A DNA stretch of 64,000 bases from Nitrosopumilus sp. (GCA_965219345.1 OZ244732.1:1408001-1472000); one strand, 5' to 3'; positions 24,479 to 44,860 are shown, numbered from the stretch's first letter. Notes: generated from the sequence alone by a model not told the origin. Numbers and translations: made by a program.

Positions 24479-24479
24479 T

Positions 24480-24517
24480 GACTGTATACGGGGGGGGGGG
24501 TTAAATAACTATATCGA
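24480..24517 (-). promoter_or_regulatory. Putative promoter with C11 tract, paralog 1
   Basis: Minus strand TCGATATAG-TTATTTAA-C11-GTATACAGTCA-TTG. Confidence 0.65.
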
Positions 24518-24748
24518 AGGATACTGTTAACAATTCGTGACATGGGCATGACTGCACCCCCAGGGGATCATCTTTGTGTCAAAGGTACAATCATGAGGCC
24601 ATCTGATCCCTCATTGACGGGTATTTCCTTCATGCATTCATCATGGCTGCCCTTCCTGCAAAACCAGCATATGCGTGATTCCATCATCATTCTTCTGACG
24701 GGCAAAACCCCACTGTAAACTTATCTGGAGGACTCTGGTATGTACTAG

Positions 24749-24926
24749 CAATGTCTGACATTGCAGACAACAAGTTCCAGATCCATCATTTCAAATATTT
24801 TGAGAACCTTTTCCCTGCTAACAATGTCTGACATTGCAGACAACAAGTTCCAGATCCATCATTTCAAATATTTTGAGAACCTTTTCCCTGCTAACAATGT
24901 CTGACATTGCAGACAACAAGTTCCAG
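24749..24926 (+). repeat. 73-bp tandem repeat, ~2.4 units, at the IS6 transposase break point
   Basis: CAATGTCTGACATTGCAGACAACAAGTTCCAG at 24749, 24822 and 24895 with identical intervening sequence. Confidence 0.9.
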
Positions 24927-25324
24927 CATAATGCCGATAACCTGCTGAGAATGGCAAAACAGCAGTCTGGCAAGTCACCTAGAAACTTCATTACAGACGG
25001 GCTGCCAGCTTATGCCAAATCCTCAAAAAAAGTATTTGGGAAAGACACGAATCATGTAAAGCACATACATCTCGCTGGGAAGCGTGACCGTGACAATAAC
25101 AACAAGATGGAGAGATTGAACGGGAAAATCAGGGATCATGAGAAGGTATTAAGGGGATTGAAAAAGATGGATACGGCAATCCTTGACGGCATGAGGGTGT
25201 ATTATAACTTCACAAAAGAACACTCTGCACTTGGCGGTAGAACGCCAGCAGAGCCTCAATGATAAGGTTGAGGGTTCTAACAAATGGAAGACGATAATCC
25301 AAAACGCCTCACTGAGCAGAACTA
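24895..25324 (+). pseudogene. IS6-family transposase, C-terminal remnant
   Basis: ITDGLPAY, NNKMERLNG, YYNF..H.ALGGRTPA; homologous to 42626-43252. Confidence 0.85.
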
Positions 25325-25594
25325 TTCAGTAGATATTATGCGTATTGCCTTTGATTTTGCGTCATGAACTCGTTTATGCATTTTCCTTAAGTTGGAATTG
25401 TATGTATCACAGCAGTCAGGATTGCAATCTATTCCGGTTGTTTTGAAACCAGCTGCTTCAAGACCCAACGAAAGCCCGCCAGCTCCGGAGTAGATGTCAA
25501 GTGCTACATATTTTGAACGTTTTGTTGGTCGTAATATTTTTTCTATTTCAAAAGGGTAATTTTTCTTGAGTGCATGTATGTCAGGAAGTTTCAT
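25322..25594 (-). pseudogene. C5-cytosine DNA methyltransferase, N-terminal fragment
   Basis: ALDIYSGAGGLSLGLEAAGF is motif I; the ORF is truncated. Confidence 0.75.
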
Positions 25595-26000
25595 TACATA
25601 TCATCAAAAATATATTTGCTAAAAACCTTCTGCAGTGGCAGGTTGCAGTCGGACATGATTTTGGATCCCAAAAGAGATGTTATGGCTTGCAATGTTTACA
25701 GTACCTGCTCTTGTTTTTTGCCAAAAACTTCCTTTCACTTTTTCTTATGATGTAATACTTGCTGTTCTTTGTGTCTCTCATCTGCGATGGCATCGTTAAG
25801 GAACTGCATGATGGGTTGTGAATTATGTCCTTTTGATTCAGAGTTGTCGTGTTTGTCACATCCGAATGCAGTTGTGTACGCAGTACAAGAACATCTTTTG
25901 ATGCTTTGAATTTCTTGATTTTGTTTGAGGGAATTCTTTCCAATACTGGCGTGTGCCATGTCATTGAAATTAAATGTTTATTTAGTGCGTTCGTAGTGCA

Positions 26001-27098
26001 TGTTAAATTTTGATGAACCGATCACCAACCTCTATTGTACGGAAATTATGTCGCGCGCCAAGAGTCCGGCGTACTGCCCAAGAGTATTTTACACTACACA
26101 AGTCCAGGCACCCCATGCCAATACGCCTGACCGACAAGGCCATCCGATACGCCGTCAGGCAGCTGGAGAAGGGCAAAGACACCAAGACGGTCGCAGAAGA
26201 GATCAACGTCACCCAGAGGCATGTGCAGCGGCTGTGGGCCGAATTCAACAGGACCGGTTCGATCCACGTCCAGCAGCCTGCAGGACGGCCGGCAGATCTC
26301 CCACCGCCCGACGAGGAAACCAATATGGTATTAGACGTTCACGGACGCAAGCCGGAGGGTGTGCTACGGACAGCCAAGAGGCTTCGGAAGGAGGGACACG
26401 ATATAAGCTACTCCCGCGTATACCAGATAATGAAGTCCAACGGCCTGGTCATCGACTCCCCGGCAAAGTCGAGGAAGCGCAAGTGGGTCAGGTACGAGCG
26501 CCTGTACTCGAATGCCATGTGGCATACTGACTGGCATGTGATGAAGGATCCGCGCATGAAGGATCTGAACCTGATCACGTATCTTGATGATGCCTCCAGG
26601 TGCGTTACGGGCGCGGCATTGTTCAGGGAGGCCACCTCAGAGAACGCGGTGGCGGTGCTCCGGCAGGCAGTCGGCAGGTTCGACGTGCCGGCGACCATCC
26701 TGTCCGACAACGGCTCGTGCTTCGTCGGCAGGGGCGGCCGCAAGAGGCAGACAGGCACCTGGACTCCGACCCTCTTTGAGAACGAGCTGCTGGACCACAA
26801 CATAGGGCTGATCAATTCAAGACCGTATCACCCGCAGACCAACGGAAAACTGGAGAGGTTCCACAGGAGCATCGAGGAGGAAATATGGCACTATGACGGG
26901 CTGGACGACTATGTCGAGTACTACAACACGGACAGGCTGCACTTTTCACTGGACATCGACAACTACGAGACGCCGCTGATGGCGTTCCGCAACAAGAGGG
27001 CTACCGACGAGATAAGACAGCAGAATTCCAGATGGATGGAGGCAGATATCAATGACTGACGACCCAGACAGGGGGCGACATGATTTTCATATATTACA
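26001..27098 (+). mobile_element. IS481-family insertion sequence
   Basis: TGT...ACA ends; GC-rich; single transposase ORF; abuts an IS6 N-terminal gene; no clear TSD. Confidence 0.8.
26010..27059 (+). CDS. IS481-family transposase (true start possibly ~26115)
   Basis: MWHTDW, LDDASR, LSDNGSCF, HPQTNGKLERFH (rve core). Confidence 0.92.
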   Translation: MMNRSPTSIVRKLCRAPRVRRTAQEYFTLHKSRHPMPIRLTDKAIRYAVRQLEKGKDTKTVAEEINVTQRHVQRLWAEFNRTGSIHVQQPAGRPADLPPPDEETNMVLDVHGRKPEGVLRTAKRLRKEGHDISYSRVYQIMKSNGLVIDSPAKSRKRKWVRYERLYSNAMWHTDWHVMKDPRMKDLNLITYLDDASRCVTGAALFREATSENAVAVLRQAVGRFDVPATILSDNGSCFVGRGGRKRQTGTWTPTLFENELLDHNIGLINSRPYHPQTNGKLERFHRSIEEEIWHYDGLDDYVEYYNTDRLHFSLDIDNYETPLMAFRNKRATDEIRQQNSRWMEADIND

Positions 27099-27473
27099 GC
27101 AATTATTGCATGTGTAACGTTGTCTTTTGGTTCCATTCTTTAGTTTTCTGAATCCTTGTTTTACTATCTCAGTTGAATAACATTTTGAACAAATCTTAGG
27201 ACGTTCTGTTTTCTCTATCTTGCTTTGTGATGTAATGGAATCCATTAAGATAATACAAGATTTGATATGCTTGCAATGTTTATCATCTAACTTTCTTAAT
27301 CTAAAATGAAAATCCTTGCACTCACAAGTCCATACATCGACTTTTGGTAGTTTTCTAATGTTGTAAGTTGTATCTGAGTTTTGTGATTCCACAGCATAAT
27401 GATTCTTTGTAATTTTTCTAATTGAATTAGTTTTTGAGAAAATTTGTGTTGCTTTTAGTTTTCTTTGATTCAT
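27099..27473 (-). pseudogene. IS6-type transposase N-terminus (SWIM and Zn-ribbon), cut by IS481
   Basis: WTCECKDF...CKH SWIM; CSKC...VKQG.R...QRYTCNNC Zn ribbon. Confidence 0.7.
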
Positions 27474-27546
27474 ACTACTAATAGTATTATAGTATTATTA
27501 ATAGTTATACTATAAGAAATAAATACTAATTATAATATTGATTAAC

Positions 27547-27684
27547 ATGGGTAAGAAATTAGTAACATCTGTTAAAATTGATGAAGATGTTTGGAAAGAA
27601 GCCAAAATCACAGCTATCAAACGAGGAACTACGGTAACAGATCTTTTGAATACGGCATTAGAAGAAGAATTAAAAAAACAGTGA
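27547..27684 (+). CDS. Small ribbon-helix-helix/CopG-like protein (45 aa)
   Basis: Manual translation MGKKLVTSVKIDEDVWKEAKITAIKRGTTVTDLLNTALEEELKKQ; divergent from the transposase. Confidence 0.7.
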   Translation: MGKKLVTSVKIDEDVWKEAKITAIKRGTTVTDLLNTALEEELKKQ

Positions 27685-27797
27685 ATAGATAACGTATAGT
27701 ACGGTACTTCTTTCAAAACACAAATTCGCCCTATTAAATTACAATAAACCTTATAAGTAACTTTTACTTCCATTAAAGTAATTGGTGATTTTCTTTA

Positions 27798-29003
27798 ATG
27801 TTTAGTAAGTCTGTTATAGATGAGTATAACGATCCATTATGGGACTCGAGTAAGTTTACTAAACCTAATGGAAAATTTGAAAGTAATGACCAAAACCAAC
27901 AAACATTTGTTCCCAATGTATTACCCCCTTCAATTTCATACGATAATGAATTAGTAATGTTACTTGCACAAGCCGAAAGAAAAGTTGGTGAGTTAAAAGG
28001 AAAAGGCAGTGAATTAAAAAACCCACATATTTTAATTCGAGCATATCTAAAACGTGAAGCAGTATTAAGTTCAAAAATTGAAGGAACCTTAGCTTCTCTA
28101 GAAGATTTGAACAAACATGAAGCTATCGGCAATATTGGACAAAATGTAGCTGAAAACTTGAGATTACGAGAAGTTGTGAATTATGTTAGAGCATTAGAAG
28201 AATCTTTAAAAAAAATAGAAGAACCAAATCAACTTGTTGATTTGAATATTATAAAAACAGCTCATAAAACATTAATGAGTGGAGTTAGAGATCAAGATAA
28301 AAATCCTGGAGAATTTAGGACAACACAAAATTGGATCGTAAAAACTCAAGGAACCAAAAAGACAATTATCTATACACCACCGTCTCCAAAAAAAATATTA
28401 GATTTACTTACAAATCTTGAAAAATTTTTCCAAACAGATCATAATCAAATTTCTACATTAATTCAATGTGCTATCATCCATTATCAATTTGAAGCTATAC
28501 ATCCGTTCCTTGATGGGAATGGGAGAATCGGAAGATTATTTCTTCCATTGATATTATACAAAAAAGGTTTGTTGCCAGAACCATTATTATATTTAAGTGC
28601 TTATTTTGATAAATATCAAGAAGAATATTATAATGGATTGTTAGCAGTGAGTCAAAAAGGCAAATGGAGGGAATGGATGAAATTTTTCCTTAAAGCTTTT
28701 GCAGAACAAGCTGATGAAACAATAAAAAATATTCAAAAATTAGTAGATTTGGAAAAAAAATATAAAAATATACTTAGACAAAAAAATACCAGTAGTAATG
28801 TTGTTCTTTTAATGGAACATATGTTTTCAAATCCATACGTTACAATTCCACAAGCTAGTAAATTTCTTGAAGTTACATATCCATCAGCAAAAAATGCAGT
28901 TATGACATTAGTAGATGTAGGAATAATACAACAAACAGACATATTCTATAATAGTAAAGTTTTTCTTGCAGAAGAAATAGAAGCAACTCTGAATATAGAT
29001 TAA
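27798..29003 (+). CDS. Fic-family protein (Fic_N, Fic, C-terminal HTH)
   Basis: EAVLSSKIEGT inhibitory motif and HPFLDGNGRIGR. Confidence 0.93.
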   Translation: MFSKSVIDEYNDPLWDSSKFTKPNGKFESNDQNQQTFVPNVLPPSISYDNELVMLLAQAERKVGELKGKGSELKNPHILIRAYLKREAVLSSKIEGTLASLEDLNKHEAIGNIGQNVAENLRLREVVNYVRALEESLKKIEEPNQLVDLNIIKTAHKTLMSGVRDQDKNPGEFRTTQNWIVKTQGTKKTIIYTPPSPKKILDLLTNLEKFFQTDHNQISTLIQCAIIHYQFEAIHPFLDGNGRIGRLFLPLILYKKGLLPEPLLYLSAYFDKYQEEYYNGLLAVSQKGKWREWMKFFLKAFAEQADETIKNIQKLVDLEKKYKNILRQKNTSSNVVLLMEHMFSNPYVTIPQASKFLEVTYPSAKNAVMTLVDVGIIQQTDIFYNSKVFLAEEIEATLNID

Positions 29004-29255
29004 AAAGGATTTTAAAAATTCTTGATAATTAGAGATTTTATTAATTTCTTCATGTCCCGAATTGAACAGTAATCTCAAATGACCCGAGTTTTGAACAGTG
29101 TACATAATCTCAGCACCCGAAGATTACACAGAACCATATTCCAACACTTTTAATAACTTCCCACAATTCCTGCAGCAGTCAATTCGCACAATTTATGACA
29201 TATGATGTTATTTTATAATTCTTTAACTAATATTCATAAAAAAAGATAAGGGTAT

Positions 29256-29825
29256 CTATCTTAATAGATCAGATATTCTCTCTTTTACGTCGTCTTTGTT
29301 GCCTGTTCTATCATCTAGTTTGTTTATTGCTTGACCATCTTCAATTTTGTAAATAGATTTTGAGATAGATATTGGGTTGTATGTGTCCCCAAATATACTA
29401 TGGATGTCTTTTCCAAGTAATAAAATTACTTGTTCTCCCACAGTTAGATCTACTGACTCTGTTCTAGAAATTATTCCATCTAAATCACCACCACCCACTA
29501 CAAATGTGATAGTTTGAGAATTTATATCACCTTTGATGACATCATCTACTTTAACAGTAAATTCGGTGTAAATTCTAGGTGGTTTATCATTATGGATAAT
29601 CTTCCAGTATGGTTTGGCTTCTAGTATAGTTCCTTCAACAATAAGAGATGCTCTGTTGATCTCTTGCTCTTCTGTTAAAGCCTCTTCTAAAGTACTAACA
29701 CCAATAGATATACCTGGGTTATCAACTGCAAATTGTTTCCCTATTGTATCAGCATCTGGTTGACTAAATACAAGAACAGGAATTACCACAAGTACCAAAA
29801 GAGGTAGTAATAGTTTTTTATTCAT
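29256..29825 (-). CDS. Exported hypothetical protein
   Basis: Signal peptide MNKKLLLPLLVLVV; ASLIVEGTI...IYTEFTVKVDDVIKG OB-like pattern. Confidence 0.7.
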   Translation of the reverse strand: MNKKLLLPLLVLVVIPVLVFSQPDADTIGKQFAVDNPGISIGVSTLEEALTEEQEINRASLIVEGTILEAKPYWKIIHNDKPPRIYTEFTVKVDDVIKGDINSQTITFVVGGGDLDGIISRTESVDLTVGEQVILLLGKDIHSIFGDTYNPISISKSIYKIEDGQAINKLDDRTGNKDDVKERISDLLR

Positions 29826-30042
29826 CTTGATACATCCCCCTAATTGTTGCTTTATCATGGCTGTTCAATGTTCTATCTACAGTATTGACTGAAATTGAAG
29901 CTATCATAGGTGAGCTTGATGTTGTTGTATGATCATGGATACCAGCAACATGTCCGATTTCATGGATGGCAACAGTTTCATAGTCATAAGACATCCATCC
30001 TTGAGATACATTTACATCTCTAAAATCTTTAGCACTGTTAAA
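29818..30042 (-). pseudogene. Matrixin/M10-like zinc metalloprotease C-terminus, truncated by an IS6 end
   Basis: Manual translation ...YDYETVAIHEIGHVAGIHDH...SPM...LNSHDKATIRGMY; the 5' end stops at the IR at 30043. Confidence 0.7.
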
Positions 30043-30221
30043 GGTTCTGTGTAATCTTCGGGTGCTGAATCTTTAGGCTAATAATATTCTTATATATGGT
30101 ATATAATATTATGATGTTACAAGCTTGTTGTGTGTGTTCTGTCGGTTTACCCGATTAGAATAAGCATACCTCCTGTTGGACTGGGCACAGTTCGTCGGAA
30201 AGCAGGAGGCAATTTATTTTT

Positions 30222-30293
30222 GGTTGTATGGTCTAGTGGTATGATGTATGGATTCCGACCCATACGACGTGGGTTCAATTCCCACTACCATCA
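30222..30293 (+). tRNA. tRNA-like gene or pseudo-tRNA (probably Gly-TCC; atypical 8-nt anticodon loop)
   Basis: GGTTGTA-TG-GTCTAGTGGTATGAT-G-TATGG-ATTCCGAC-CCATA-CGAC-GTGGG-TTCAATT-CCCAC-TACCATC-A; good D and T arms, one acceptor-stem mismatch. Confidence 0.65.
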
Positions 30294-30301
30294 CAATTCT
30301 A

Positions 30302-30420
30302 TTAGACTGAATTTTGCTTGTGCAATGAAGCGTTTTCTATAATTGTTTTCCAACGATTTATTCCGTCAACCGTGATTTTAGCTGATTCTGCTGGAGTTTG
30401 TCCTTTGAGTGCATCGAGAT
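30302..30420 (-). pseudogene. IS6 transposase extreme C-terminus
   Basis: ALKGQTPAESAKITVDGINRWKTIIENASL matches the end of 42626-43252. Confidence 0.8.
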
Positions 30421-31597
30421 TGCAGAGATCAACGAATCCTTGTATTCGATTATAGGAACTGCTGGCAAAGTAGGAGGAAAATCTACAATGTCGTATCTGA
30501 TATACATGGCAATTAGGATTTTGGAGATGCATAGAATTCTAAAATCAACAGGTTCGTTGTACCTGCACTGCGACACCACAATGAGCCATTATCTCAAGCT
30601 GGTACTGGATTCAATATTTGGTGGGGAATCATTCCGAAACGACATAACGTGGAAACGAACCAGTTCTCACAATGACAGCAAGAGATACGGGAAGATTTCT
30701 GACCAGATACTGTTTTACTCCAAGACCAGAGACTACACATGGAATGATGTCTATCTTCCATACTCGGAGGAATACAAAAAGAAAAATTTCAAGAACAAGG
30801 ATGATCGTGGATATTATAGCCATGAACAATTAACTGCTAAAAGTCTGTCAGGCGGAGGGTACGAGTATGAATACAAGGGGCATATGAGAATCTGGAAGAG
30901 AGCGTTAGAATCTATGTTGGAGTTAGAAAAAAATGATATGTTGCATTACCCAAAGAAAAAAGGTGGACTTCCACGTTATAAGATATATCTTGATGATGCA
31001 AAGGGACTGCCTTTGTAGAACATCTGGACTGACATATCTGGTGTCAAGGGTTCAGAAAGGCTTGGCCACCATACGCAAAAACCACTTGCACTTTTGGAAC
31101 GAATCATAAAAGCCAGCAGTTACACTGGTGGAATGGTGTTTGACCCCTTTTGTGGCTGTGCCACAGATTGTCTTGCAGCAGAGAAACAGGGCAGAAAATG
31201 GATAGGGTGCGATATATCAGAAAGAGCCTATTCGTTGATTGAACAAAGACTCAAGAAAGATGCAGGAATTGCCAAGTTCATTACTAGCACAGGACAAGTT
31301 ATACAAAGAACGGATATACCAAAAAGAAAGGGTAGGCGATCCAAGGATGTCAAGCATACGTTATACGGAATCCAACATGGGTACTGCAACGGTTGTAAAT
31401 ACCATTATCTATTCAAGGATTTGGAGGTAGATCACATCATACCAAAAGCAAAGGGTGGTCAGGATGATGACAAAAACCTTCAACTACTTTGTGGTAACTG
31501 CAACAGACGGAAGGGCGGAAAGCTTACCATGACTGAACTTAATGCCGTGCTGGTTGCAGAGGGCATGAAGTTCGGTAAGGGTAAGACAGAACTATGA
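30420..31597 (+). pseudogene. N6/N4 DNA methyltransferase-HNH endonuclease fusion, 5'-truncated with an internal stop
   Basis: LKSTGSLYLHCD, TQKP..LLERII, DPFCG, and C-terminal CxxC...VDHIIPKAKGG..D..NLQLLCxxCN; TAG at 31016-31018. Confidence 0.85.
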
Positions 31598-31954
31598 AAT
31601 CACCATAAAACTACTGACAATTAACAACAGGGTTTAACCCCTGACATCTATTCCATATCCCCATTATTAGACAGAACCGACAGAACCCCTCACCCCTCGA
31701 CAGTTAACAGGAAGAATTAAGCGACGATAAGTTAACAGAACCCTGTATTAGAAAAGTTAAAAGAATACTATGGATAATGATGATTGTTATGGTCAGAACA
31801 GAAAGAACCGCTGGTTTTACAGATACTCTGGATACAGTATACGAGTATGAGAACGAGGATGATATAATACCATCCAAAATTCTACACGTGGTGTCTAAAT
31901 CACAATCATCTACCGACCCTTAACAGCAAGAATTATCTACCATGAACTTAACAG

Positions 31955-34586: not shown

Positions 34587-35966
34587 CTAGATACTGCAGG
34601 TTGCAGTCGTAGTTATGGTCTGCGTCAGCTGACCTGTAAAGTCTTGACTGATGTTATCAATTTGAACCTGCAGATATTGGAAAGCAAAATTGCCAGGTGG
34701 GAAAACATCTACCGCCCTACCGTCTGTTTCAGACATTGGGGTTCTGTTCTCGTATACATGGTTCGAACTATTAATACCGTACCTTGTCTGCCCTACATCC
34801 ATGATTGGCTCATCATTACTGTTCATCCAGTCAGTTGCAGATATGTCCACATAAATATAGGCAGTGCCAGTATTCTCAATTACCATTAACTTTGCATCCG
34901 AAGTATCTCCATATGCCAGACTGCCAAAGTCCAGATCACCGGATACGCTGGCCGAGCATACGGGAGCATCGGCGCCAGAGGCATCCAGCGTGACGTTAAT
35001 CATCTTTCTTGCAATCTCGTTTTGGGACTCTACGATGGCGCCATCTACAACGGTACCGTAGGGCAGGCCGACAGTCATATTGTATAAAAAGAAGTCGTCA
35101 CTAAACACGCCCCTGATGTTGTACTCGGTGCCGTATAATAAAAATGATAGATTATCCAGATTCCCATCCTGATCCTCGTTTAATGTTATGGGCAGTCCGC
35201 CATCTGTCGTCTCAGGAAGGTCAAGTCCGACTCTTGCATTACTTACAAAGGGCTCAAAGGAGGGAAATGGAAAGAGGAAATTCGGAGGTTGCTTACCATA
35301 CAGGTCTTCAGTTTCATAAAGCACGACTACGCCGGAACTGTTGGAGGACTTTGTAAAGTCATCCCTGAACGTTACGGATGGCTTTTCACCTACCGTAATC
35401 TCCACGGGTATGGTCTTGGTTGCCCCGGTAGTAGTACAGGTCGCATTCCCGGCATTACCGGTATAGGTGAACTCTTTTATGACAATGTCAAACGTATCGA
35501 TGCCCGTATATGTGGCACCGGGGATGTAGTCAAATTCGGCAAGCATTGTGGGGTCGTGGCCAAAGTCATTCGTATTACAGGTTATGGCAAGTCTAGTGCC
35601 ATTATTAAAATCGTACGGTTTTATGGGATCTCCGGATGCCACAAGACTGCCGCCCTCTTCAGTGGTCAGGGGGTCGGGAAACACGGCAATCCAGGGACTT
35701 CCAGTGACATTATAACCAATAGCATTATGAACAAGTCTAGATGAGTCTGGTAACGAGGATGGTGTGCTTAACAGTACTCTTGTCAGTTCCAAGTCATGGG
35801 CAATCGTACCATATCCGACATCGTATCTCAGTGTTGGAACAATATCCACAGTACCATCAGTGTCTGACTGGCCATACGCATAGTAGCCTCCTGCAGTCAT
35901 TGTTGCTGTTATCGCTACCGCCATCAGGATCGCCGCAACAGTGCCGTCTCTCTTCTTTAGTGCCAA
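34587..35966 (-). CDS. Secreted surface-protein family, paralog 2
   Basis: Homologous to 23135-24478. Confidence 0.85.
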   Translation of the reverse strand: MALKKRDGTVAAILMAVAITATMTAGGYYAYGQSDTDGTVDIVPTLRYDVGYGTIAHDLELTRVLLSTPSSLPDSSRLVHNAIGYNVTGSPWIAVFPDPLTTEEGGSLVASGDPIKPYDFNNGTRLAITCNTNDFGHDPTMLAEFDYIPGATYTGIDTFDIVIKEFTYTGNAGNATCTTTGATKTIPVEITVGEKPSVTFRDDFTKSSNSSGVVVLYETEDLYGKQPPNFLFPFPSFEPFVSNARVGLDLPETTDGGLPITLNEDQDGNLDNLSFLLYGTEYNIRGVFSDDFFLYNMTVGLPYGTVVDGAIVESQNEIARKMINVTLDASGADAPVCSASVSGDLDFGSLAYGDTSDAKLMVIENTGTAYIYVDISATDWMNSNDEPIMDVGQTRYGINSSNHVYENRTPMSETDGRAVDVFPPGNFAFQYLQVQIDNISQDFTGQLTQTITTTATCSI

Positions 35967-36007
35967 TGACTGTATACGGGGGGGGGGGGGGTAAATAACT
36001 ATATCGA
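35967..36007 (-). promoter_or_regulatory. Putative promoter with C14 tract, paralog 2
   Basis: G14 at 35978-35991 followed by TAAATAACTATATCG. Confidence 0.65.
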
Positions 36008-37538: not shown

Positions 37539-39061
37539 TCAGAATATCTTGACAGGCATCGGATTATCTAAGTTAATGTGTGGATGGATTTTGTCAACAA
37601 GTAATGCCACAGCGTATTTGAGACAGCGATCGGCATCATCTTTTGTTACTTGCTTCCCATTATGGTAGAACTTGTTACGCTTTCTTTTCAGATCAATTAA
37701 AAGATCCTAAGAATCTTCATCAATTTTATCTTGAAGACTAAGAACTTCCAAGACATAGTCAATCGTCCATTGGGTGGGATTGTTTAGTTTGGATAAGCGC
37801 TCATGATCAATATCTTTCTGGGAGAGTAACGTGTGCCAAAGATCAGAGTAGTGTCTTTCTATCACACTCCAACCTAGGATAAAAGATGGAGCAAACTCTG
37901 AGTTGACAAGATGAGTCAGTCCATCATTGAGCAATCTCATGTCTTCTGATAATTTTTCATGTACAAGTAATTTTTCAGTGTTTGACAGAATTTTCTGCAT
38001 GGTCTCTAATTTCATCTCGGTTTTTGTAACGAACCTGTTGTGTTTGAAATTAAAGGAGTCCTCAATGAGATGTGCTCGTCTAGTTTCAGAATTCCATTGC
38101 ATGTCAGTTATAGTCAAATTTTGTTTGTCATAATTGGCCATAACCAATTCATGCTCACGAACAGCATGCAGAGAAAATCCATAAAATGCCCAAATGACAT
38201 TATCAGGTTTAGAATTTTTAATGCATCTTCTTTACTTCTGCTTTCAACAAAGATAAACCCATCCTTGTTGACGATGATTTGATTATTGCCAATCATTCTG
38301 TCAAATACTTTAGAATTAATCAAACGATTGAATGTGTTGTGGACCAATTCCCCTATACTACGCTTTTGTTCTGCACCTATTACAATTGGAGGAAACAAAT
38401 GCACTCCAAATCCCGCATATCTGTAATTTGCAAGTGATGATGGTTGTTGCAATATTGATGTTCTATCTTGTTTGCCCTTGGCTTCTTGTTTGATTTTTTG
38501 AATTGTCTTGTTAATTTCTTGTATGTGATCAATCTCTCCAATATTTCCTGCATGAATCCCGGTCCAGGTATCTTCAAGTGCCATCCCAATTAATGCATGA
38601 TGATCTCTTCTTTGTGGCATAAAGGCATCGCTCTTGATCATCTCAATAAATTTGGAAATCTCTGAGGCCATTTTCTCCCCCAATGTATTGAATTGCTCAT
38701 ATTCTGCTGGCAGTTTCTGCTTGGTTTTTCGTATCCATCTTTTATCTTCCAGTATTGTAACCACTTTGGAATAAAATTCATGTCGTTTGTATGGTCCATT
38801 TACTGTGATTTCCTTGTCCGGCCTGTCGTTAAAATTAGATTGTATTATTAGTTGGTAATCCGGATCAGCAATCCAAAAAATTTCAATCTGGCATGGGTTT
38901 AAAAAATTATTTGTGTTGTTCACACCTTTTTTTTCATCGGCAGATAATTTTTCGTATTCTTCTCGAAAATAGTCAATATAGTTTAGATACCATTGTGTTA
39001 ACGATTCTCGTTTACTGGTTTGTTCCAACATACGGCTTAGATATGTTGGATATATTAACAC
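37539..39061 (-). pseudogene. HEPN-domain protein with a frameshift and a premature stop
   Basis: ORFs 38114-39061 and 37707-38147 overlap; reading past the TAG at 37707 gives DLKRKRNKFYHNG (RxxxxH). Confidence 0.65.
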
Positions 39062-39182
39062 AGATAATTTCTTACATTGATCGAAACGAGGAAAAATCTC
39101 CCATTAACTTAAATTCCGTTGAATCATGAAAATAGTGAAGAATTTCATAGTAAGGATTTTCTAATCTGAAACCTAAACATGC

Positions 39183-39662
39183 ATGATGGAAGTCATTCTG
39201 ATGATTGGAATTCAAGGTAGTGGAAAGACAATGCTTACCCAAATTGCATTTCCAAACCATCGCCATATATCCTTAGATAAAATCAAAGAATTTTCATCAA
39301 GGAAAAAACATGATCTGTTAAAACAATACACAATAAGTAATGCACAACTGTTGCATGATCAACGTTTGAGCAAAGAAAGAAAAATTGAATATGTTATAAT
39401 AGATAACTGCCTAAAAAATGGCAAAAATGTTGTTGTTGATGATACTAATGTTACAAAACATATACGTAAACACCATATTCATCTTGCTCAAAAATATGAT
39501 GCTACAGTAAACGCAATATTTTTTCAGAACATCCAAAAAGCGTATGAGCAAAACAGAAATCGCAAGAAACCATTGGATAAAAAAATATTGGATAAATTTC
39601 ATAGTGATTTAGAAATTCCCCACATGGAAGAAGGATTTGGATTTATCCAAGTCATGTGTTGA
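39183..39662 (+). CDS. AAA_33 / polynucleotide-kinase-like P-loop protein
   Basis: MIGIQGSGKT, VVVDDTN, and P..EEGF C-terminus. Confidence 0.85.
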   Translation: MMEVILMIGIQGSGKTMLTQIAFPNHRHISLDKIKEFSSRKKHDLLKQYTISNAQLLHDQRLSKERKIEYVIIDNCLKNGKNVVVDDTNVTKHIRKHHIHLAQKYDATVNAIFFQNIQKAYEQNRNRKKPLDKKILDKFHSDLEIPHMEEGFGFIQVMC

Positions 39663-39794
39663 TATTCTAACGTAGCAATACAACACCTGAATGTAGTACT
39701 AATTTAAAATGATAGAAAATGATATCAATGTATAACAACAGAATGATCTAAAATATTTATAATAAAAACCAATGTATGAATTCACCCATCCCTT

Positions 39795-40067
39795 ATATCA
39801 GTCGGGTAACCTCCTCTTCTGCCACGCTCTTGCCGTGATTCTGCCATGTTAGGACACAGCTTACAAAATCTTCAAGGCGCTTTATGGCCTTGCTGCCGCC
39901 CTTGGTCTGCCGCTTATCTTCTGGAACACCACTAGATAACGCAGTGCCCTCTCCGATGCATTGTTAGTCGGCTCCATCCCCAGATACCCCACAAACGTGT
40001 ACAGGTTCTCTGCGGCGTTCTCAAGGGTCGTGCCAAATCCGATACCGAGATTCTTGTATTCCCACAT
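39795..40067 (-). pseudogene. IS66-family transposase C-terminal remnant
   Basis: LYTFV...MEPTNNASERALR.LVV..KISG. Confidence 0.8.
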
Positions 40068-40114
40068 GGTCAGTAGAACCTCAGCGACTCCACGTCCCTA
40101 AGAAAGGAAAGGCG

Positions 40115-40327
40115 TCAGACATGCCTTAGTTCCAACTCGCATCTTCTTATGTTCCTTTCAAGCTCTGATTTTTTGCGTTTAAGATGCTTTAGCTCCAGAG
40201 TTACCGCCTTTTTGCGCGATTGTGGATGCTTGATGTTGCCGCAAATGGCATCCGCTCTTTTTCCATTCTCTTGATATCTATGATAATAGTATTCGTTGCC
40301 ACAGACATTCATAATTATGATTGGCAT
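40115..40327 (-). CDS. Small basic hypothetical protein, copy 2
   Basis: Duplicate of 34224-34436. Confidence 0.55.
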   Translation of the reverse strand: MPIIIMNVCGNEYYYHRYQENGKRADAICGNIKHPQSRKKAVTLELKHLKRKKSELERNIRRCELELRHV

Positions 40328-40887
40328 TATATGTTATCTCAAAGGGTTCTGTGTAACCTTCGGGTGTTATTCTGTAGCCTTGTTTAGTGAGACATAAAAG
40401 CGCAACGGGGACTCGGTCTGACATTCAACCTTCTTGCAAGTTCTCATACTATGATCTAGACCTTTCGGAATTTGGTTCTGTCAGGTTGTCGAGGGGGACA
40501 AGTCAGGACTGGTTTCTCCATTCATCCTTGTCCAAAGCCGTCATCTGTTTAGAAGATACATTCCCACTTGGTGAAGGCAACATAGCTAGCTTCTTCAAGT
40601 GGGATAGAGTCACAAGCATTGCAAGTCAGCAATCCATGCCAATAGTCTTTGATGCCGGGAATCCCCGCTGCGGCCTTCATCCAATGGAAAATCACCACTG
40701 TACCGTGTGGCAGCAGCAGCAGCAACAGCAGCAGTAGCGAAGGCCGATACATAATGATGCCAGAGACAATGGCTACGCAGCCGGCATCCCTTTTAATTCA
40801 CAATGACGGATTTTTACAAAATAAATAAGAAAGGCTAGGGACAGAACACAGATACAGTCACAGTCTGTGGATGACAGCCAATGAGTG

Positions 40888-42270
40888 CTACTGCAGCAGA
40901 TAAGGACAGGACACAGATATAGTCACAGTCTGTGTAATCTGACCTGTAAAGTCTGGACTGATGTCGCCACCAATTTGAACTTGCAGCCAGTTGACATTTT
41001 CCCCGTCAGGAGGGATAAAAGCGGTAAACACTCTGTCTGTTTCAGATATTAAGTGTATATTCTCGTATGCAATGCGCCGGTCATCAGAGTACCTTGTCTG
41101 CCCCACATCCATGATTGGGGTACCATGACTGTCCAGCCAGTCAGTGCCAGATATTGACATACCACCATAAGTAGTGCCAGTATTCTTGGTTGCAAGTCTC
41201 TTTTTATCCGAAATATCGCCATATGCCAGACTGCCAAAGTCCAGATCAGCGGATACCCTGACTGAGCATATAGGAACATCAGTAGCGCCAGAGGCATCCA
41301 GCGTGACGTCAATTGTTTTTGATGCAATCTCGTTTAGGGACCCTACGATAGTGCCGTTTGCAGCAACGGTACCGTAAGGCAGACTGGCAGTCGCATTGTA
41401 TGAAAAAGAGTCATTACTAAACACGCCTCTGATGACATAATATTTGGTACCATTTTCCAAGGTTACGGGAGTTATGACTGATCCGTCATCTGTCGTCTCA
41501 GGAAGGTCAAGTCCGACTATTGCATTACTTACAGGGAGATCAAAGGAGGGAAATGGAACCGCGAAGTCGAAGAAGCCATCACCGGGAGGTTGCAAACCAA
41601 TCAGGTCATCATCACGGTCAAGCACGACTACGCCGGAACTGTTGGAGAACTTTGTAAAGTCATCCCTGAACGTTACGGATGGCTTTTCACCTACCGTAAT
41701 CTCCACGGGTATGGTCTTGGTTGCCCCGGTAGTAGTACAGGTCGCATTCCCGGCATTACCGGTATAGGTGAACTCTTTTATGACAATGTCAAACGTATCG
41801 ATGCCCGTATATGTAGCACCGGGGATGTAGTCAAATTCGGCAAGCATTGTGGGGTCGTGGCCAAAGTCATCCGTAGCACAGGTTATGGCAGGTACCTGAT
41901 TGCCAAGATCATGATAGTCGTATGGTAATATGGGATCTCCGGATGCCACAAGGCTGCCGCCCTCTTCAGTGGTCAGGGGGTCGGGAAACACGGCAATCCA
42001 GGGATTGTCACTGCCGGGTTGTCTAAGGTTGATGGCATTATGATATGTGGGATGAACACGATCCTCTGTTACCAGGGACAGATCATGGGCAATCGTACCA
42101 TATCCGACATCGTATCTCAGTGTTGGAAGAATCTCCACGTCAGCATCATTGACTGACTGGCCATACGCATGGCCTGCAGTCACTGCTACTGCTGCTACTG
42201 CTGCTACCACTGTTATCGCTGCAGCCATCAGGATCGCCGCAACAGTGCCGTCCCTCTTCTTTAGTGTCAC
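40888..42270 (-). CDS. Secreted surface-protein family, paralog 3
   Basis: Homologous to paralogs 1, 2 and 4; most divergent C-terminal domain. Confidence 0.85.
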   Translation of the reverse strand: MTLKKRDGTVAAILMAAAITVVAAVAAVAVTAGHAYGQSVNDADVEILPTLRYDVGYGTIAHDLSLVTEDRVHPTYHNAINLRQPGSDNPWIAVFPDPLTTEEGGSLVASGDPILPYDYHDLGNQVPAITCATDDFGHDPTMLAEFDYIPGATYTGIDTFDIVIKEFTYTGNAGNATCTTTGATKTIPVEITVGEKPSVTFRDDFTKFSNSSGVVVLDRDDDLIGLQPPGDGFFDFAVPFPSFDLPVSNAIVGLDLPETTDDGSVITPVTLENGTKYYVIRGVFSNDSFSYNATASLPYGTVAANGTIVGSLNEIASKTIDVTLDASGATDVPICSVRVSADLDFGSLAYGDISDKKRLATKNTGTTYGGMSISGTDWLDSHGTPIMDVGQTRYSDDRRIAYENIHLISETDRVFTAFIPPDGENVNWLQVQIGGDISPDFTGQITQTVTISVSCPYLLQ

Positions 42271-42311
42271 TGACTGTATACGGGGGGGGGGGGGGGTAAA
42301 TAACTATATCG
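42271..42311 (-). promoter_or_regulatory. Putative promoter with C15 tract, paralog 3
   Basis: G15 at 42282-42296 followed by TAAATAACTATATCG. Confidence 0.65.
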
Positions 42312-42317
42312 GAGGGT

Positions 42318-43300
42318 GGTTCTGTGTAATCTTCGGGACTTGAGAAATATGGAAAAATGATTTTTTTGATCAATTTTTAGATTTGTCTTACATCATAAAG
42401 ATCAAATGTAATATTTTTAGTTCCTAAAACAGCTTGAAACACAATGTTATCGTCTACAGCTATTTGCATTACATTGTCTGTTAGAAAACCACCGCCTAAT
42501 TCTTGTACTTCTAAATTGATTTGTCTAAAATGAGCAATCATATTGTTTATGTTGCCTTGTATAACTGGATGTAGAGGAGAAAAGAGAGCATTGTATCTTT
42601 CCGTAAATCTGTCAACCATTATGAGATGATGGGAATTGATGTATCTTTTAAAACCATATACAACTGGGTATCAAAGTGCTCTGAAATGACCTCGATCTAT
42701 CTCAATGGCATAGTTCCAAGAACTAAAGGTCTAATGTTCAGGGCAGATGAGGTATGGATTAAAGTAAATGGCAAACAATGTTATCTGTTTGCTGGTATGG
42801 ATGATGATTCTAGATTTTGGCTAGCTTCTGATGTTGCAGATAACAAGTTTCATCACAATGCAGACAGCCTCTTAGAATTCACAAAAAGACAGGCTGGAAA
42901 ATCACCTAGAAATTTTGTTACTGACGGTCTACCAGCATACATGAAATCATCAAAGAAAATATTTGGAAAAAAGACAAATCACATCAGACATATTCACATC
43001 CAAAAAGATGTGAACAACAACAAGATGGAGCGTTTAAACGGAGAGATCAGAGACCGAGAGAAAGCCTTTAGGGGTCTCAAAAGAATAGACACGCCAGTAA
43101 TTGAAGGCATGAAAGTGTATTACAATTTCACAAAAAAACATGGAGCTTTGAAAGGCAAGACACCAGCTCAAGCCTCACTAATTGAAGTGGACGGTAAGAA
43201 CAAATGGAAGACGATCATACAAAATGCCTCACTAAACAAGGCTACTGAATGAATCCTTAGAAGATCCATATTTCTCAAGTCCCGAAGATTACACAGAACC
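42318..43300 (+). mobile_element. Internally deleted IS6-family element with 36-bp perfect terminal IRs
   Basis: GGTTCTGTGTAATCTTCGGGACTTGAGAAATATGGA at 42318-42353 and its reverse complement at 43265-43300. Confidence 0.9.
42626..43252 (+). CDS. IS6-family DDE transposase (5'-truncated)
   Basis: TIYNWV, ADEVWIKVNG..YLF..MD, VTDGLPAY, NNKMERLN. Confidence 0.88.
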   Translation: MMGIDVSFKTIYNWVSKCSEMTSIYLNGIVPRTKGLMFRADEVWIKVNGKQCYLFAGMDDDSRFWLASDVADNKFHHNADSLLEFTKRQAGKSPRNFVTDGLPAYMKSSKKIFGKKTNHIRHIHIQKDVNNNKMERLNGEIRDREKAFRGLKRIDTPVIEGMKVYYNFTKKHGALKGKTPAQASLIEVDGKNKWKTIIQNASLNKATE

Positions 43301-43441
43301 TCTCAAAGACCGGCCGAGGTCTCATTGATGCCTCCCTCTGTTTCTTCCATATCAAATACAAGACCCGACAGTGTTGCAAACACCCCATGTCTTACACGTT
43401 CTGACAGTCCGAACCTCCTACGGTGTGATTTCAGGCTAGGG

Positions 43442-44821
43442 CTAGATACTGCAGGTTGCAGTCGTAGTTATGGTCTGCGTCAGCTGACCTGTAAAGGTAT
43501 TAGAGATCTCACCAATTTTAACCTGCAGATATTGGAAAAATAAATTAAAGCCAGGTGACAAATTATCTGCAAAATCAGCGTCAATTTCAGACATTGGGAT
43601 TTTGTCCTCGTATGCAAAGTTTACAATATGAGAGTACCTTGTCTGCCCTACATCCATGATTGGCTCATCATTACTGTTCATCCAGTCAGTTGCAGATACG
43701 TCCACATCAACAACACCGGTGCCAGTATTGTTTATTTGAAGTGGCTTTGCATCCGAAGTATCGCCATATGCCAGGCTGCCAAAGTCCAGATCACCGGATA
43801 CGCTGGCCGAGCATACTGGAACATCGGCGCCAGAGGCATCCAGCGTGACGTTAATCATCTTTCTTGCAATCTCGTTTTGGGACTCTACGATGACGCCATC
43901 TACAACGGTACCGTAGGGCAGGCCGACAGTCATATTGTATAAAAAGAAGTCGTTACTAAACACGCCCCTGATGTTGTACTCGGTGCCATATAATGCAAAT
44001 GATGTATTATCCAGATTCCCATCCTGATCCGCGTTTAATGTTATGGGCAGTCCGCTATCTGTCGTCTCAGGAAGGTCAAGTCCGACTCTTGCATTACTTA
44101 CAAAGGGCTCAAAGGAGGGAAATGGAAAGGAGAAATTCGGAGGTTGCTTACCATACAGGTCTTCAATTTTATAAAGCACGACTACGCCGGAACTGTTGGA
44201 GAACTTTGTAAAGTCATCCCTGAACGTTACGGATGGCTTTTCACCTACCGTAATATCTACGGGTATGGTTCTAGTTTCTCCGGTAACAAGACAGGCCGCA
44301 GATCTGGCATCACCGGTATAGGTGAACTCTTTTATGACAATGTCAAACGTATCGGTACCGGTATACGTGGCACCAGGGATGTAGTCAAACTCTGCAAGCA
44401 TTGTGGGGTCGTGGCCAAAGTCGTTCGTATCACAGGTTATGGCAAGTCTAGTGCCATTATTAAAATCGTACGGTCTCATAGGTTCTCCGGATGCCACAAG
44501 ACTGCCGCCCTGTATGGTATTCAAAGAGTCAGGAAACACGGCAATCCAGGGACTTCCAGTGACATTATAACCAATAGCATTATGAACAAGTCTAGATTGG
44601 TCTGGTAACGTGGATGGTGTGCTTAACAGTACTCTTGTCAGTTCCAAGTCATGGGCAATCGTACCATATTCGACATCGTATCTCAGCGTTGGAACAACCA
44701 CCACATCGGCATCGGTGCCTGACTGGCCATACGCATAGTAGCCTCCTGCAGTCATTGTTGCTGTTATCGCTACCGCCATCAGGATCGCCGCAACAGTGCC
44801 GTCTCTCTTCTTTAGTGTCAC
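43442..44821 (-). CDS. Secreted surface-protein family, paralog 4
   Basis: Closest to paralog 2; shares downstream 43301-43490 with 34446-34635. Confidence 0.85.
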   Translation of the reverse strand: MTLKKRDGTVAAILMAVAITATMTAGGYYAYGQSGTDADVVVVPTLRYDVEYGTIAHDLELTRVLLSTPSTLPDQSRLVHNAIGYNVTGSPWIAVFPDSLNTIQGGSLVASGEPMRPYDFNNGTRLAITCDTNDFGHDPTMLAEFDYIPGATYTGTDTFDIVIKEFTYTGDARSAACLVTGETRTIPVDITVGEKPSVTFRDDFTKFSNSSGVVVLYKIEDLYGKQPPNFSFPFPSFEPFVSNARVGLDLPETTDSGLPITLNADQDGNLDNTSFALYGTEYNIRGVFSNDFFLYNMTVGLPYGTVVDGVIVESQNEIARKMINVTLDASGADVPVCSASVSGDLDFGSLAYGDTSDAKPLQINNTGTGVVDVDVSATDWMNSNDEPIMDVGQTRYSHIVNFAYEDKIPMSEIDADFADNLSPGFNLFFQYLQVKIGEISNTFTGQLTQTITTTATCSI

Positions 44822-44860
44822 TGACTGTATACGGGGGGGGGGGGTAAATAACTATATCGA
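44822..44860 (-). promoter_or_regulatory. Putative promoter with C12 tract, paralog 4
   Basis: G12 at 44833-44844 followed by TAAATAACTATATCG. Confidence 0.65.

Follow-up and report, generated by a model that had tools for sequence, protein, structure and literature searches.

Four genes in a stretch of Nitrosopumilus sp. DNA open with the same short cassette, in which a run of cytosines of varying length separates a TATA-like box from the start codon, and the question is whether the length of this run could switch or tune the genes behind it. Archaeal RNA polymerase initiates downstream of the TATA box, and the interval between the two is roughly constant. Under this constraint, a change of one C would bring the transcription start one base nearer to or farther from the start codon and initiator. 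The original prediction, made on the 64,000-nucleotide stretch that was analysed (the window), had proposed such a ruler as distinct from bacterial −35/−10 spacing. We lean, by a modest measure, towards a contingency switch, with the distance from TATA box to start governed by the length of the tract; in this reading, the transcription start, the effect of the tract length n on expression, the identity of the ON lengths and the switching rate are inferred.

The minus-strand arrangement CGATATAGTTATTTA(A), C11, C14, C15 or C12, GTATACAGTCA and (T/G)TG was recovered in four copies, with the G-runs at the predicted positions (Table 1), and the first T of TTATTTA lies 30, 32, 33 and 30 nt before the start codon, in agreement with the earlier description. 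The flanks are almost invariant, but the accompanying claim that only n changes was too strict: copy 1 carries an extra A, and copies 1 and 2 read TTG GCA where GTG ACA is found elsewhere. The 15-mer box matched four times in the window with no mismatches, compared with 0.26 matches expected by chance, and a count of four was attained in none of 100 shuffles. Runs of at least nine C gave 21 overlapping matches versus 0.09 expected, which comprise the four cassette tracts and one C9 at 54273-54281 on the plus strand. Each cassette opens a paralogous secreted-protein ORF, and the N-terminus of P0001, with the basic n-region LALKERD followed by a hydrophobic helix, reads as a signal peptide.

Table 1. 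Cassette features and associated reading frames, in positions of the window
Feature	Position	Strand	Remark
Copy 1, BRE-like GATATAG and TATA-like TTATTTA box (CGATATAGTTATTTA)	24502..24516	-	followed by an extra A at 24501
Copy 1, poly-C tract, n=11 (G run on the + strand)	24490..24500	-	
Copy 1, 11-nt AT-rich spacer GTATACAGTCA, proposed initiation region, without Shine-Dalgarno	24479..24489	-	
Copy 1, ORF P0001, 447 aa, TTG start	23135..24478	-	
Copy 2, BRE/TATA-like box	35992..36006	-	
Copy 2, poly-C tract, n=14	35978..35991	-	
Copy 2, 11-nt spacer GTATACAGTCA	35967..35977	-	
Copy 2, ORF P0002, 459 aa, TTG start	34587..35966	-	
Copy 3, BRE/TATA-like box	42297..42311	-	
Copy 3, poly-C tract, n=15	42282..42296	-	
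Copy 3, 11-nt spacer	42271..42281	-	
Copy 3, ORF P0003, 460 aa, GTG start	40888..42270	-	
Copy 4, BRE/TATA-like box	44845..44859	-	
Copy 4, poly-C tract, n=12	44833..44844	-	
Copy 4, 11-nt spacer	44822..44832	-	
Copy 4, ORF P0004, 459 aa, GTG start	43442..44821	-	

Across the genome, nine of the ten paralogs of this family (family A) carry the tract after the TATA-like box and ahead of the start codon, with n = 11, 14, 12, 15, 11, 14, 15, 12 and 11, and the tract of the tenth is interrupted (CCCCCTCCCCCCT). The order of elements is conserved, with a purine-rich BRE-like GATATRG, the TATA-like TTATTTA, C(n), an AT-rich region of 11-12 nt and GTG or TTG. The first T of the box stands 29-33 nt before the start codon throughout, and the same spacing, D=32, is arrived at by three routes with different total sequences. 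The family A proteins combine a signal-peptide-like N-terminus with an ASH-like C-terminal domain; in P0004 the last ~120 aa form a widespread domain, distantly ASH-like and of the Ig fold. An AlphaFold2 model of P0004 based on a nine-paralog alignment had a mean pLDDT of 37.9, with only residues ~335-459 attaining 60-74, and a Pfam search of the four window proteins returned no family at E<=0.1. A search of 150 other species of the genus did not recover the cassette pattern, a comparison of P0004 with 60 relatives gave only one weak match (E=6e-14, C-terminal part), and a metagenome search with the tract, spacer and start pattern yielded 0 stretches.

The promoter of these genes must lie in the cassette, because the upstream sequences of the copies are unrelated past about 30-35 nt, and the AT-rich box is the sole promoter candidate within the conserved part. 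The host is an ammonia-oxidising archaeon, as judged from its archaeal SSU and LSU rRNA and its archaeal amoA, so the cassette does not belong to the bacterial −35/−10 spacer switches, even if it may work like one. Hexamer position histograms from 995 long ORFs of this genome showed that TTTAWA starts peak at about −31 to −27 from the ATG (11, 11, 16, 10 and 6 occurrences, compared with 0-5 elsewhere), accompanied by an A-rich stretch at −35 to −32. This TATA-like peak marks the leaderless class of genes in this genome, and the cassette boxes, at 29-33 nt before the start, are placed as a TATA-like element of an archaeal promoter is expected to be (~26-30 nt). Two runs of EM motif discovery for a BRE/TATA matrix gave generic A-rich motifs only. 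Since the spacers of ordinary leaderless-type promoters in this genome are AT-rich (29% GC), and 52 of 54 are free of any C/G run longer than 3, the poly-C tract is an added feature. The spacer GTATACAGTCA contains no Shine-Dalgarno sequence, as it does not match the complement of ...GGATCACCTCCT at the 3′ end of the 16S rRNA, and its combination with a GTG or TTG start would imply an mRNA with little or no leader that codes for a signal peptide. Neither codon is a usual leaderless start, TTG least of all, which counts against the favoured switch. Which lengths would be ON depends on the box register, which is ambiguous (TTATTT or TTTA), and since the observed distances of 29-33 nt fall within or close to the natural promoter range, the effect of n could be graded or nil instead of ON/OFF.

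As assembled, the tract length differs both between copies and between sequencing runs. An alignment of 1000 columns around the tract shows the duplicates at C1:402806 and C1:1450282 to be identical in 998, and their sole indel is one C, with n=15 in copy 3 and n=14 in its duplicate at C1:402806. In contigs of four public runs, four of the eight indel rows over 20 kb fall at the three tracts compared; as the contigs are assembled, cross-mapped paralogs and homopolymer errors may contribute to these differences. For copy 3, a clean 325-nt contig of run X6, from another study, has n=13 instead of 15 and is otherwise identical. Copy 2 is one base shorter, at 35978, in contigs of runs X1, X2 and X5, those of X1 and X2 being possibly paralog-derived (identical short flanks), and copy 4 has two extra bases at 44832 in one contig of run X2, for which paralog cross-mapping is also possible. 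An apparent insertion of A at 44832 was discarded, as the contig carried 26 other differences and represents another paralog.

The cassettes form part of a larger set of tracts. C/G runs in the genome are bimodal in length, with 539, 66, 15, 4 and 2 runs of 5, 6, 7, 8 and 9 nt followed by 31 runs of 10-15 nt, where an extrapolation from lengths 5-7 predicts about 0.15. Based on Pfam, tracts outside the cassettes lie in or adjoin two GT2 glycosyltransferases, a sulfotransferase, an MBOAT gene, three N6_N4_Mtase genes and giant surface-protein genes of the SWM/LVIVD/cadherin-like type; several others adjoin no obvious gene. These genes belong to the typical phase-variable classes of surface structures, glycan modification and DNA methylases. 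Together with a repeat longer than composition predicts and a placement where a change of length would alter expression, these are features expected of a contingency locus. Six of the seven clearly intragenic tracts are in frame, and the tract lengths of the assembly are therefore credible. All 31 tracts of at least 10 nt obey one strand rule, and 108 tracts in five relatives show the same pattern of strand blocks. No match to MutS_V, DNA_mis_repair or NucS_C, and no MutS, MutL or NucS gene, was found in this 99.5% complete genome. An origin of the tracts by transposon or terminal addition was rejected, as their flanks are too diverse.

A second family of this design was found in another species of the genus, G090, where nine copies of a secreted-protein gene begin with CAAAAACTTTATTAGCCA-C(11-16)-TTCACTTTA-ATG, encoding MKTLLFTIVSLAALASFVALPAVYA... 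(the box is also given as TTTATTAGCCA, ahead of C11-16-TTCACTTTA-ATG). These proteins are unrelated to family A (BLASTP E=1.2), and the ATG with the whole signal peptide comes 9 nt after the tract. The same species additionally carries ATTAATATAG-C13-GTCATT-ATG ahead of an SdrD-like secreted protein. The G090 design of box, C(n), 9 nt and ATG is convergent with that of family A. Of the predicted ruler, the geometry is supported by the archaeal host, the genome-wide TATA-to-ATG peak, a spacer without Shine-Dalgarno and a box inside the cassette, as well as by the independent G090 family and by values of n that differ between duplicates and runs; a shift in transcription start and a dependence of expression on n would be its predicted consequences.

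Other readings of the cassette were weighed against these data. The true start might be the ATG of Met15, with the promoter at GTATAC or elsewhere, so that the tract would lie upstream of the TATA box or in a leader of ~50 nt, and we regard this as unlikely. Public gene calls do use this internal ATG (445-aa forms; one copy starts upstream of the tract), GTATAC is AT-rich, and GGCGATCC, 2 nt upstream of the ATG, resembles the SD-complement GGTGATCC and matches the complement of the 16S 3′ end at 7 of 8 positions. However, the Met15 position is GTG in copy C1:1582614, the 14 upstream codons differ among the copies by synonymous third-position changes and by a 3-nt indel that keeps the frame, and they encode the basic n-region (KKRD/KERD) expected for a signal peptide. 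Moreover, the region 25-30 nt upstream of the tract is devoid of TATA-like sequence, and the 9 nt between tract and ATG in the G090 family leave no room for this geometry. In such an arrangement, the tract would vary how far away an upstream factor site lies, on the precedent of Bordetella fim, or act at the RNA level, on that of H. pylori RepG and the tlpB G-repeat (PMC8295292), which we likewise hold to be improbable. It is very doubtful that the ATG contained in some boxes (GATATG) initiates translation, with the tract read as poly-proline and frameshifts toggling the protein. Four of the ten copies have this ATG (C1:331712, 485134, 1250973 and 1582614), it is in frame in copy 485134, where the database gene call P0009 reads MGEPLTDMIIYPPPPVYPLVTLKERD..., and true 5′-proximal coding tracts occur elsewhere in the genome, such as ATG ACC C14 at C1:632223. 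ATA nevertheless takes the place of ATG in the interrupted copy, in copy 402806 and in all four copies of the window, all frames from the ATG of copy 331712 hit a stop ahead of the ORF, and a proline-rich extension ahead of a signal peptide is implausible.

The tracts could also be a mutational by-product, in which strand-specific slippage or expansion without mismatch repair inflates C runs that are then inherited with the cassette at neutral lengths, a reading to which we assign a low probability. The strict replication-strand polarity indicates that a mutational process shapes the tracts, and this process could yield tracts without function. In favour of a by-product are the single strand rule, with its switches at orc1/cdc6 and the opposite GC-skew extreme, its recurrence in the five relatives, the missing MutS, MutL and NucS and the tracts without an obvious gene nearby. 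On the other hand, the box-to-start position is fixed in nine of ten copies and again in the unrelated family of another species, the tracts occur preferentially in genes of the surface, glycan and methylase classes, six of seven intragenic ones are kept in frame, and normal promoters avoid C/G runs in this very spacer. Finally, homopolymers of 11-15 nt are error-prone on every platform, and the tracts might be real while errors of sequencing or assembly account for the variation of n among copies and runs. The Logan contigs of X1 and X2 break in or near the tracts and may include cross-mapped paralogs; yet this account is quite improbable, as random ±1 errors would leave at least six of the seven intragenic tracts in frame with p of about 0.007, the spacing D=32 recurs by three routes, and the clean 325-nt contig differs by 2 nt at the tract only.

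In the contingency switch that we favour, the tract would be a hypermutable poly(C·G) spacer within the core promoter of a gene for a secreted or surface protein. Replication slippage would add or remove one C and would go uncorrected in this genome because no mismatch-repair genes were found. Each of the nine paralogs may be switched or tuned in this way, heritably and reversibly, and family A would constitute one arm of a genome-wide set of 31 contingency loci. A joint reading of all the data, which we put forward tentatively and consider possible though short of probable, is that multi-locus phase variation operates in this free-living ammonia oxidiser, and in a subclade of the genus to which it belongs. 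It would include a poly-C ruler to a leaderless start that evolved at least twice, in gene families unrelated to each other, archaeal phasevarions and glycan enzymes, and tracts that can persist at 10 nt or more only in one fork orientation, tying the repertoire to replication.

Repeat-driven phase variation is textbook biology of bacterial pathogens. Poly-G/C lies between −35 and −10 in Neisseria porA/opc, (TA)n occupies the same interval in Haemophilus hifA/B, and Mycoplasma hyorhinis vlp genes combine poly-A with a conserved promoter and signal-peptide cassette. As in these loci, a slippery core-promoter repeat sets the distance between two promoter elements here, in a surface multigene family with a common 5′ cassette and repeat lengths that differ among copies. 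Unlike in those bacterial loci, the elements are an archaeal BRE/TATA-like box and the start of an apparently leaderless mRNA instead of a sigma-70 −35/−10 pair, and the proposed read-out is the position of the transcription start relative to the start codon together with promoter strength. The Treponema pallidum tpr genes, with poly-G shortly before the site where transcription begins (PMC7864442), are similar in having a variable homopolymeric G/C tract in the promoters of paralogous putative surface proteins; there the promoter is bacterial and the organism a host-restricted pathogen, whereas the present tract abuts a TATA-like box in a free-living nitrifier. Multi-locus poly-G/C phasomes and phasevarions are described for Campylobacter, Helicobacter and Neisseria (PMC8355987, PMC5084427, PMC13076061). 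They share with this genome dozens of G/C tracts, both intragenic and intergenic, in glycosyltransferase, surface-protein and DNA-methylase genes and the lack of functional mismatch repair, but the present host is a chemolithoautotroph of the domain Archaea and is not host-associated. According to a 2025 review, multi-locus phase-variable genomes are apparently restricted to pathogens and archaeal distribution is assigned to future work (PMC11868660), and our literature search found no description of multi-locus repeat-driven phase variation in Archaea or free-living nitrifiers. In C. elegans, poly-G/C tracts are maintained by DOG-1 (PMC2211496), with a similar genome-wide excess of long G/C homopolymers of replication-dependent stability; that system is eukaryotic, no gene-family promoter role is claimed for it there, and the single-origin strand rule is specific to the present archaeon.

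If the tracts switch genes, they would create heritable surface, glycan and methylome diversity inside clonal populations of ammonia-oxidising archaea, with consequences for the dynamics of viruses and their hosts, for the microdiversity of strains in soils and waters and for the reading of enrichment cultures and metagenome bins. The lengths n = 11-16 would also provide a natural allelic series to test how strictly archaeal and, by extension, Pol II-like machinery measures the TATA-to-start distance, and the same series would probe the tolerance of leaderless translation to shifts of the 5′ end. Through the replication-strand rule, the stability of G/C tracts becomes approachable in an organism without known mismatch repair. 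The points at which the strand polarity of the tracts reverses coincide exactly with the orc1/cdc6 gene and the extremes of GC skew.

Four copies of a minus-strand cassette, comprising CGATATAGTTATTTA, a cytosine tract C(n), GTATACAGTCA, and a start codon, were found in the window, with an extra A between CGATATAGTTATTTA and C(n) in copy 1 only. The original prediction had described these four elements, and the window sequence bore out their positions and tract lengths of 11, 14, 15, and 12. Re-measurement from the first T of the BRE/TATA-like box (TTATTTA) to the start codon returned the same 30, 32, 33, and 30 nt for copies 1 to 4, and each of the predicted TTG or GTG codons opens an ORF of 447–460 aa. 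The 15-mer box occurred exactly four times in the window, compared with 0.26 expected; a count of four was reached in 0 of 100 shuffles. C runs of at least 9 nt gave 21 overlapping hits against 0.09 expected, corresponding to the four tracts and one C9. The poly-C cassette is a real and non-random feature, and it is far broader than the earlier finding.

Coordinates of tracts and associated features (C1, host contig containing the window; family A, paralogous secreted-protein ORFs with the cassette; X1–X6, public sequencing runs; L-numbers, tract loci in relatives; G009 and G036, other species of the genus; G000, host genome)
Feature	Position	Strand	Details
Copy 1 tract	window 24490-24500	-	n=11; start TTG, ORF 447 aa
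Copy 2 tract	window 35978-35991	-	n=14; start TTG, ORF 459 aa
Copy 3 tract	window 42282-42296	-	n=15; start GTG, ORF 460 aa
Copy 4 tract	window 44833-44844	-	n=12; start GTG, ORF 459 aa
C9 run	window 54273-54281 (C1:1462273)	+	not one of the four cassette tracts
Further family-A tract	C1:331712		C11
Further family-A tract	C1:402806		C14
Further family-A tract	C1:485134		C12
Further family-A tract	C1:1250973		C15
Further family-A tract	C1:1582614		C11
Tenth family-A paralog	C1:1363100		interrupted tract at C1:1363076-1363088
Public-run difference, -1	window 35978		contigs of X1, X2, X5
Public-run difference, -2	window 42282		X6, 325-nt contig, otherwise identical
Public-run difference, +2	window 44832		contig of X2
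Public-run A insertion	window 44832		belongs to paralog contig
Polarity block	92-485 kb	+	C on this strand, 12/12 tracts
Polarity block	632-1488 kb	+	G on this strand, 13/13 tracts
Polarity block	1583-1726 kb	+	C on this strand, 6/6 tracts
C/G runs of 8-9 nt	C1:21052, 61880, 74613, 477909, 1035098, 1462273
Tract-linked N6/N4 DNA-methylase genes	C1:745276-747535, C1:1034264-1035106, C1:1233227-1234666		three genes
Second cassette	C1:92299, 201598, 908813, 1487802
Element GAATCCGTCATATCC...TTTTTTGG	L081 (G009); L149, L152-L154, L157 (G036); C1:405776 (G000)

Genome-wide, nine copies of the tract-bearing cassette were identified, four in the window and five elsewhere. In a tenth paralog the tract is interrupted and non-slippery (CCCCCTCCCCCCT), the ORF is intact, and the box lies 31 nt from the start codon; this paralog is also the sole family-A copy in the opposite orientation, its C strand having the 'wrong' replication polarity. 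Since the copies are unrelated past about 30–35 nt upstream of the tract, a common promoter must be located inside the cassette, whose sole AT-rich element is GATATRGTTATTTA. The family-A proteins had no match in Pfam, and their N-terminus reads as a putative signal peptide, with (V/L)(T/A)LK(K/E)RDG preceding a hydrophobic stretch and then AYGQS. AlphaFold2 placed a helix at residues 9–22 in a model that was poor overall (mean pLDDT 37.9). In the hydrophobic core of this putative signal peptide, a GTAGCAGCA-type repeat, (VAA)n, differed by an 18-nt indel between window ~42100-42270 (-) and its near-identical duplicate at C1:402806. When 1.84 billion representatives were searched with a profile, only three full-length clusters fell below 1e-30, and the C-terminal ~120 residues matched 274 proteins; ASH hits were obtained in 2 of 11 Pfam-scanned proteins matching this C-terminal part, one of them weak (E = 0.0069). 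The cassette pattern did not detect family A in 150 further species of the genus, and a protein search of 60 relatives yielded only one weak C-terminal match.

The natural promoter spacing of this genome was derived from 995 long ORFs in which no more than 60 nt separate the first ATG from the upstream stop. These were A-rich from −35 to −32 and A/T-rich from −30 to −23, and TTTAWA started at −31, −30, −29, −28, and −27 in 11, 11, 16, 10, and 6 genes, compared with 0–5 elsewhere. A wider set of TATA-like hexamers peaked from −31 to −26 (20, 22, 33, 26, 24, and 16 genes), and this peak near the ATG therefore indicates a sizeable leaderless-type class. Among 54 leaderless-type promoters, the TATA-to-ATG spacer had 29% GC, and 52 had no C/G run longer than 3. 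The family-A spacer GTATACAGTCA did not match the anti-SD at the 16S 3′ end. The box-to-start distances in the ten copies were 29, 30, 30, 31 (interrupted copy), 32, 32, 32, 32, 33, and 33 nt, bracketing the natural promoter range, and the value of 32 was reached via three sequence routes (C14+11, CCA+C11+11, and T+C12+12). If TTATTT sets the register, the natural range includes the short alleles and also the interrupted copy, whose ORF is intact; if the register is TTTA, n = 14 falls on the mode.

Archaeal polymerase initiates a roughly constant number of nucleotides from the TATA box. In the proposed mechanism, the tract is a spacer prone to slippage, with the BRE/TATA-like box on one side and, on the other, the initiation region of an mRNA that would be leaderless or nearly so. 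Because of the roughly fixed start distance, each ±1 C should reposition the mRNA 5′ end with respect to the initiator and the start codon, which may switch or tune that paralog. We somewhat favor this slippage-prone TATA-to-start spacer, with its length switching or tuning the paralogs; on the likeliest reading, the cassettes would be promoter-spacer contingency switches of an archaeon, belonging to a putative multi-locus repertoire of phase variation.

Two alternatives depend on where translation starts. The public gene calls disagree on the start codon, and five of them place it at an internal ATG (Met15, giving for example 445 aa). We consider such an internal start, with the tract located upstream of the promoter or in a leader, improbable. 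The GTG or TTG following GTATACAGTCA is favored as the start, because the 14 codons preceding Met15 supply the putative signal peptide with its basic n-region and vary between copies by synonymous third-position changes and an in-frame 3-nt indel, because Met15 is GTG in the copy at C1:1582614, and because a G-to-T change in two copies still leaves a start codon. One further public call starts upstream and translates the tract as PPPP, as a translational poly-proline switch from an in-box ATG would require; such an ATG is present in only 4 of the 10 copies and in 0 of the 4 window copies, and this switch appears very unlikely.

The other two alternatives concern the tracts themselves, which might differ in length through sequencing error, a rather remote prospect, or have arisen neutrally from a strand-specific process of mutation, which is unlikely. 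The duplicates at C1:402806 and window copy 3 (C1:1450282) agreed at 998 of the 1000 alignment columns surrounding the tract, and the sole indel in these columns was one C (14 vs. 15); these near-identical duplicates also share ~900 nt of identical upstream sequence including an IS240-type transposase gene. As a control of the assembly, six of seven clearly intragenic tracts were in frame (p ~0.007 under random ±1 errors, our own calculation). Logan assembled contigs of public runs were compared over 20 kb covering three of the tracts, and four of the eight indel rows fell at these three tracts, with paralog cross-mapping or homopolymer error as possible sources of the length differences; the contigs of X1 and X2 terminate inside or near tracts. 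As for a mutational origin, all 31 tracts of at least 10 nt in the genome obeyed a single strand rule, with at most two polarity switches on the circle (chance about 4e-7). The switch points fell at the extremes of cumulative GC skew (maximum at 0.58 Mb, minimum at 1.54 Mb), the single orc1/cdc6 match at 573.9 kb coincided with a polarity switch, and polarity was independent of gene orientation. Polarity blocks were also present in five of five relatives (108 tracts). Five of the six C/G runs of 8–9 nt had the opposite polarity to the long tracts, which suggests that tract growth past about 9 nt depends on orientation.

The family-A tracts belong to a larger set in the host genome, where C/G homopolymers of 5, 6, 7, 8, and 9 nt numbered 539, 66, 15, 4, and 2, followed by 31 of 10–15 nt. 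Besides family A, intragenic tracts were located in genes for an MBOAT acyltransferase, a sulfotransferase, two GT2 glycosyltransferases, and a beta-propeller/CARDB-like protein. Six tracts within MBOAT, sulfotransferase, GT2, and beta-propeller/CARDB-like genes were clustered in 55 kb (C1:405776-459147), a region that resembles a surface-glycan modification island whose putative switches are intragenic. Among the three tract-linked methylase genes, one was split at a G11 into 437-aa and 374-aa frames, the second had a G9 5 nt after an ATG that is out of frame by one, and the third (methylase-HNH) had a G12 55 nt upstream of its ATG, making all three candidate archaeal phasevarions. Giant ORFs (1802–5204 aa) with SWM and LVIVD repeats also had tracts, ~21 nt ahead of their ATG. 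Here a second cassette, ...TTTATTTTCA(CA)n-C(11-14)-GTTATTCTGTTGATG, was observed in the G sense, with a neighboring (CA)n that varies too and a geometry unlike that of family A. MutS_V, DNA_mis_repair (MutL), and NucS_C were not found in the host genome in searches whose controls did match. This repertoire of tract genes mirrors bacterial phasomes.

C tracts of at least 11 nt were present in 39 of 101 scanned genomes of the genus, some counts in fragmented bins being contig-end artefacts. Five near-complete relatives had 13–31 tracts of at least 10 nt each, and all 108 were inspected. One species of the genus (G090) carries nine copies of ...CAAAAACTTTATTAGCCA-C(n)-TTCACTTTA-ATG with products starting MKTLLFTIVSLAALASFVALPAVYAQ..., tract lengths of 13, 16, 15, 14, 11, 12, 15, and 14 plus a variant box with C16, and box-to-ATG distances of 31–36 nt. 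This family, one member of which is Ig/cadherin-like, is unrelated to family A (BLASTP E = 1.2). The same species has ATTAATATAG-C13-GTCATT-ATG ahead of an SdrD-B-like secreted protein, and other relatives have their own multi-copy tract-bearing cassettes. Thus, the design of an AT-rich box, a C tract, a short AT-rich spacer, a start codon, and a signal peptide arose in unrelated genes. A separate element, GAATCCGTCATATCC...TTTYAT-C(10-12)-TTTTTTGG, was conserved in three species with a tract in each copy.

In a full-text search of the main text of openly accessible articles, no description was found of repeat-mediated phase variation in ammonia-oxidising archaea or of a TATA-to-start repeat switch in Archaea; a prior description may exist elsewhere. 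A 2010 survey of 18 archaeal genomes covers only coding-region tracts and reports that poly(C)/(G) was not biased toward the 5′ end (PMC2831843). According to a 2025 review, multi-locus phase-variable genomes are apparently restricted to pathogens, and their archaeal distribution is named as future work (PMC11868660).

The host genome (1.91 Mb, 36% GC, two contigs, rated 99.5% complete; the window is C1:1408001-1472000) contains archaeal SSU and LSU rRNA and archaeal amoA, and mcrA was not found in it; the host is an ammonia-oxidising archaeon. The four window copies sit in an island bounded by the methionyl-tRNA synthetase gene and ilvC, which also contains IS transposases (rve, IS240), a Fic gene, and a split methylase-HNH gene, and which adjoins a 3361-aa cadherin/Ig-like ORF. 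The methylase-HNH gene, of the same type as the tract-linked one, is split into 206-aa and 167-aa ORFs between family-A copies (window 30398-31597, +), and no long homopolymer was seen at their junction. At window 25.6-27.1 kb and 41-42.3 kb, the contig depth in public runs was 5–20x that of the flanks, consistent with multi-copy IS (rve integrase) and with paralogous sequence. Distant parts of the island are connected by several junction contigs of the public runs, suggesting rearranged or alternative island arrangements in the sequenced populations.
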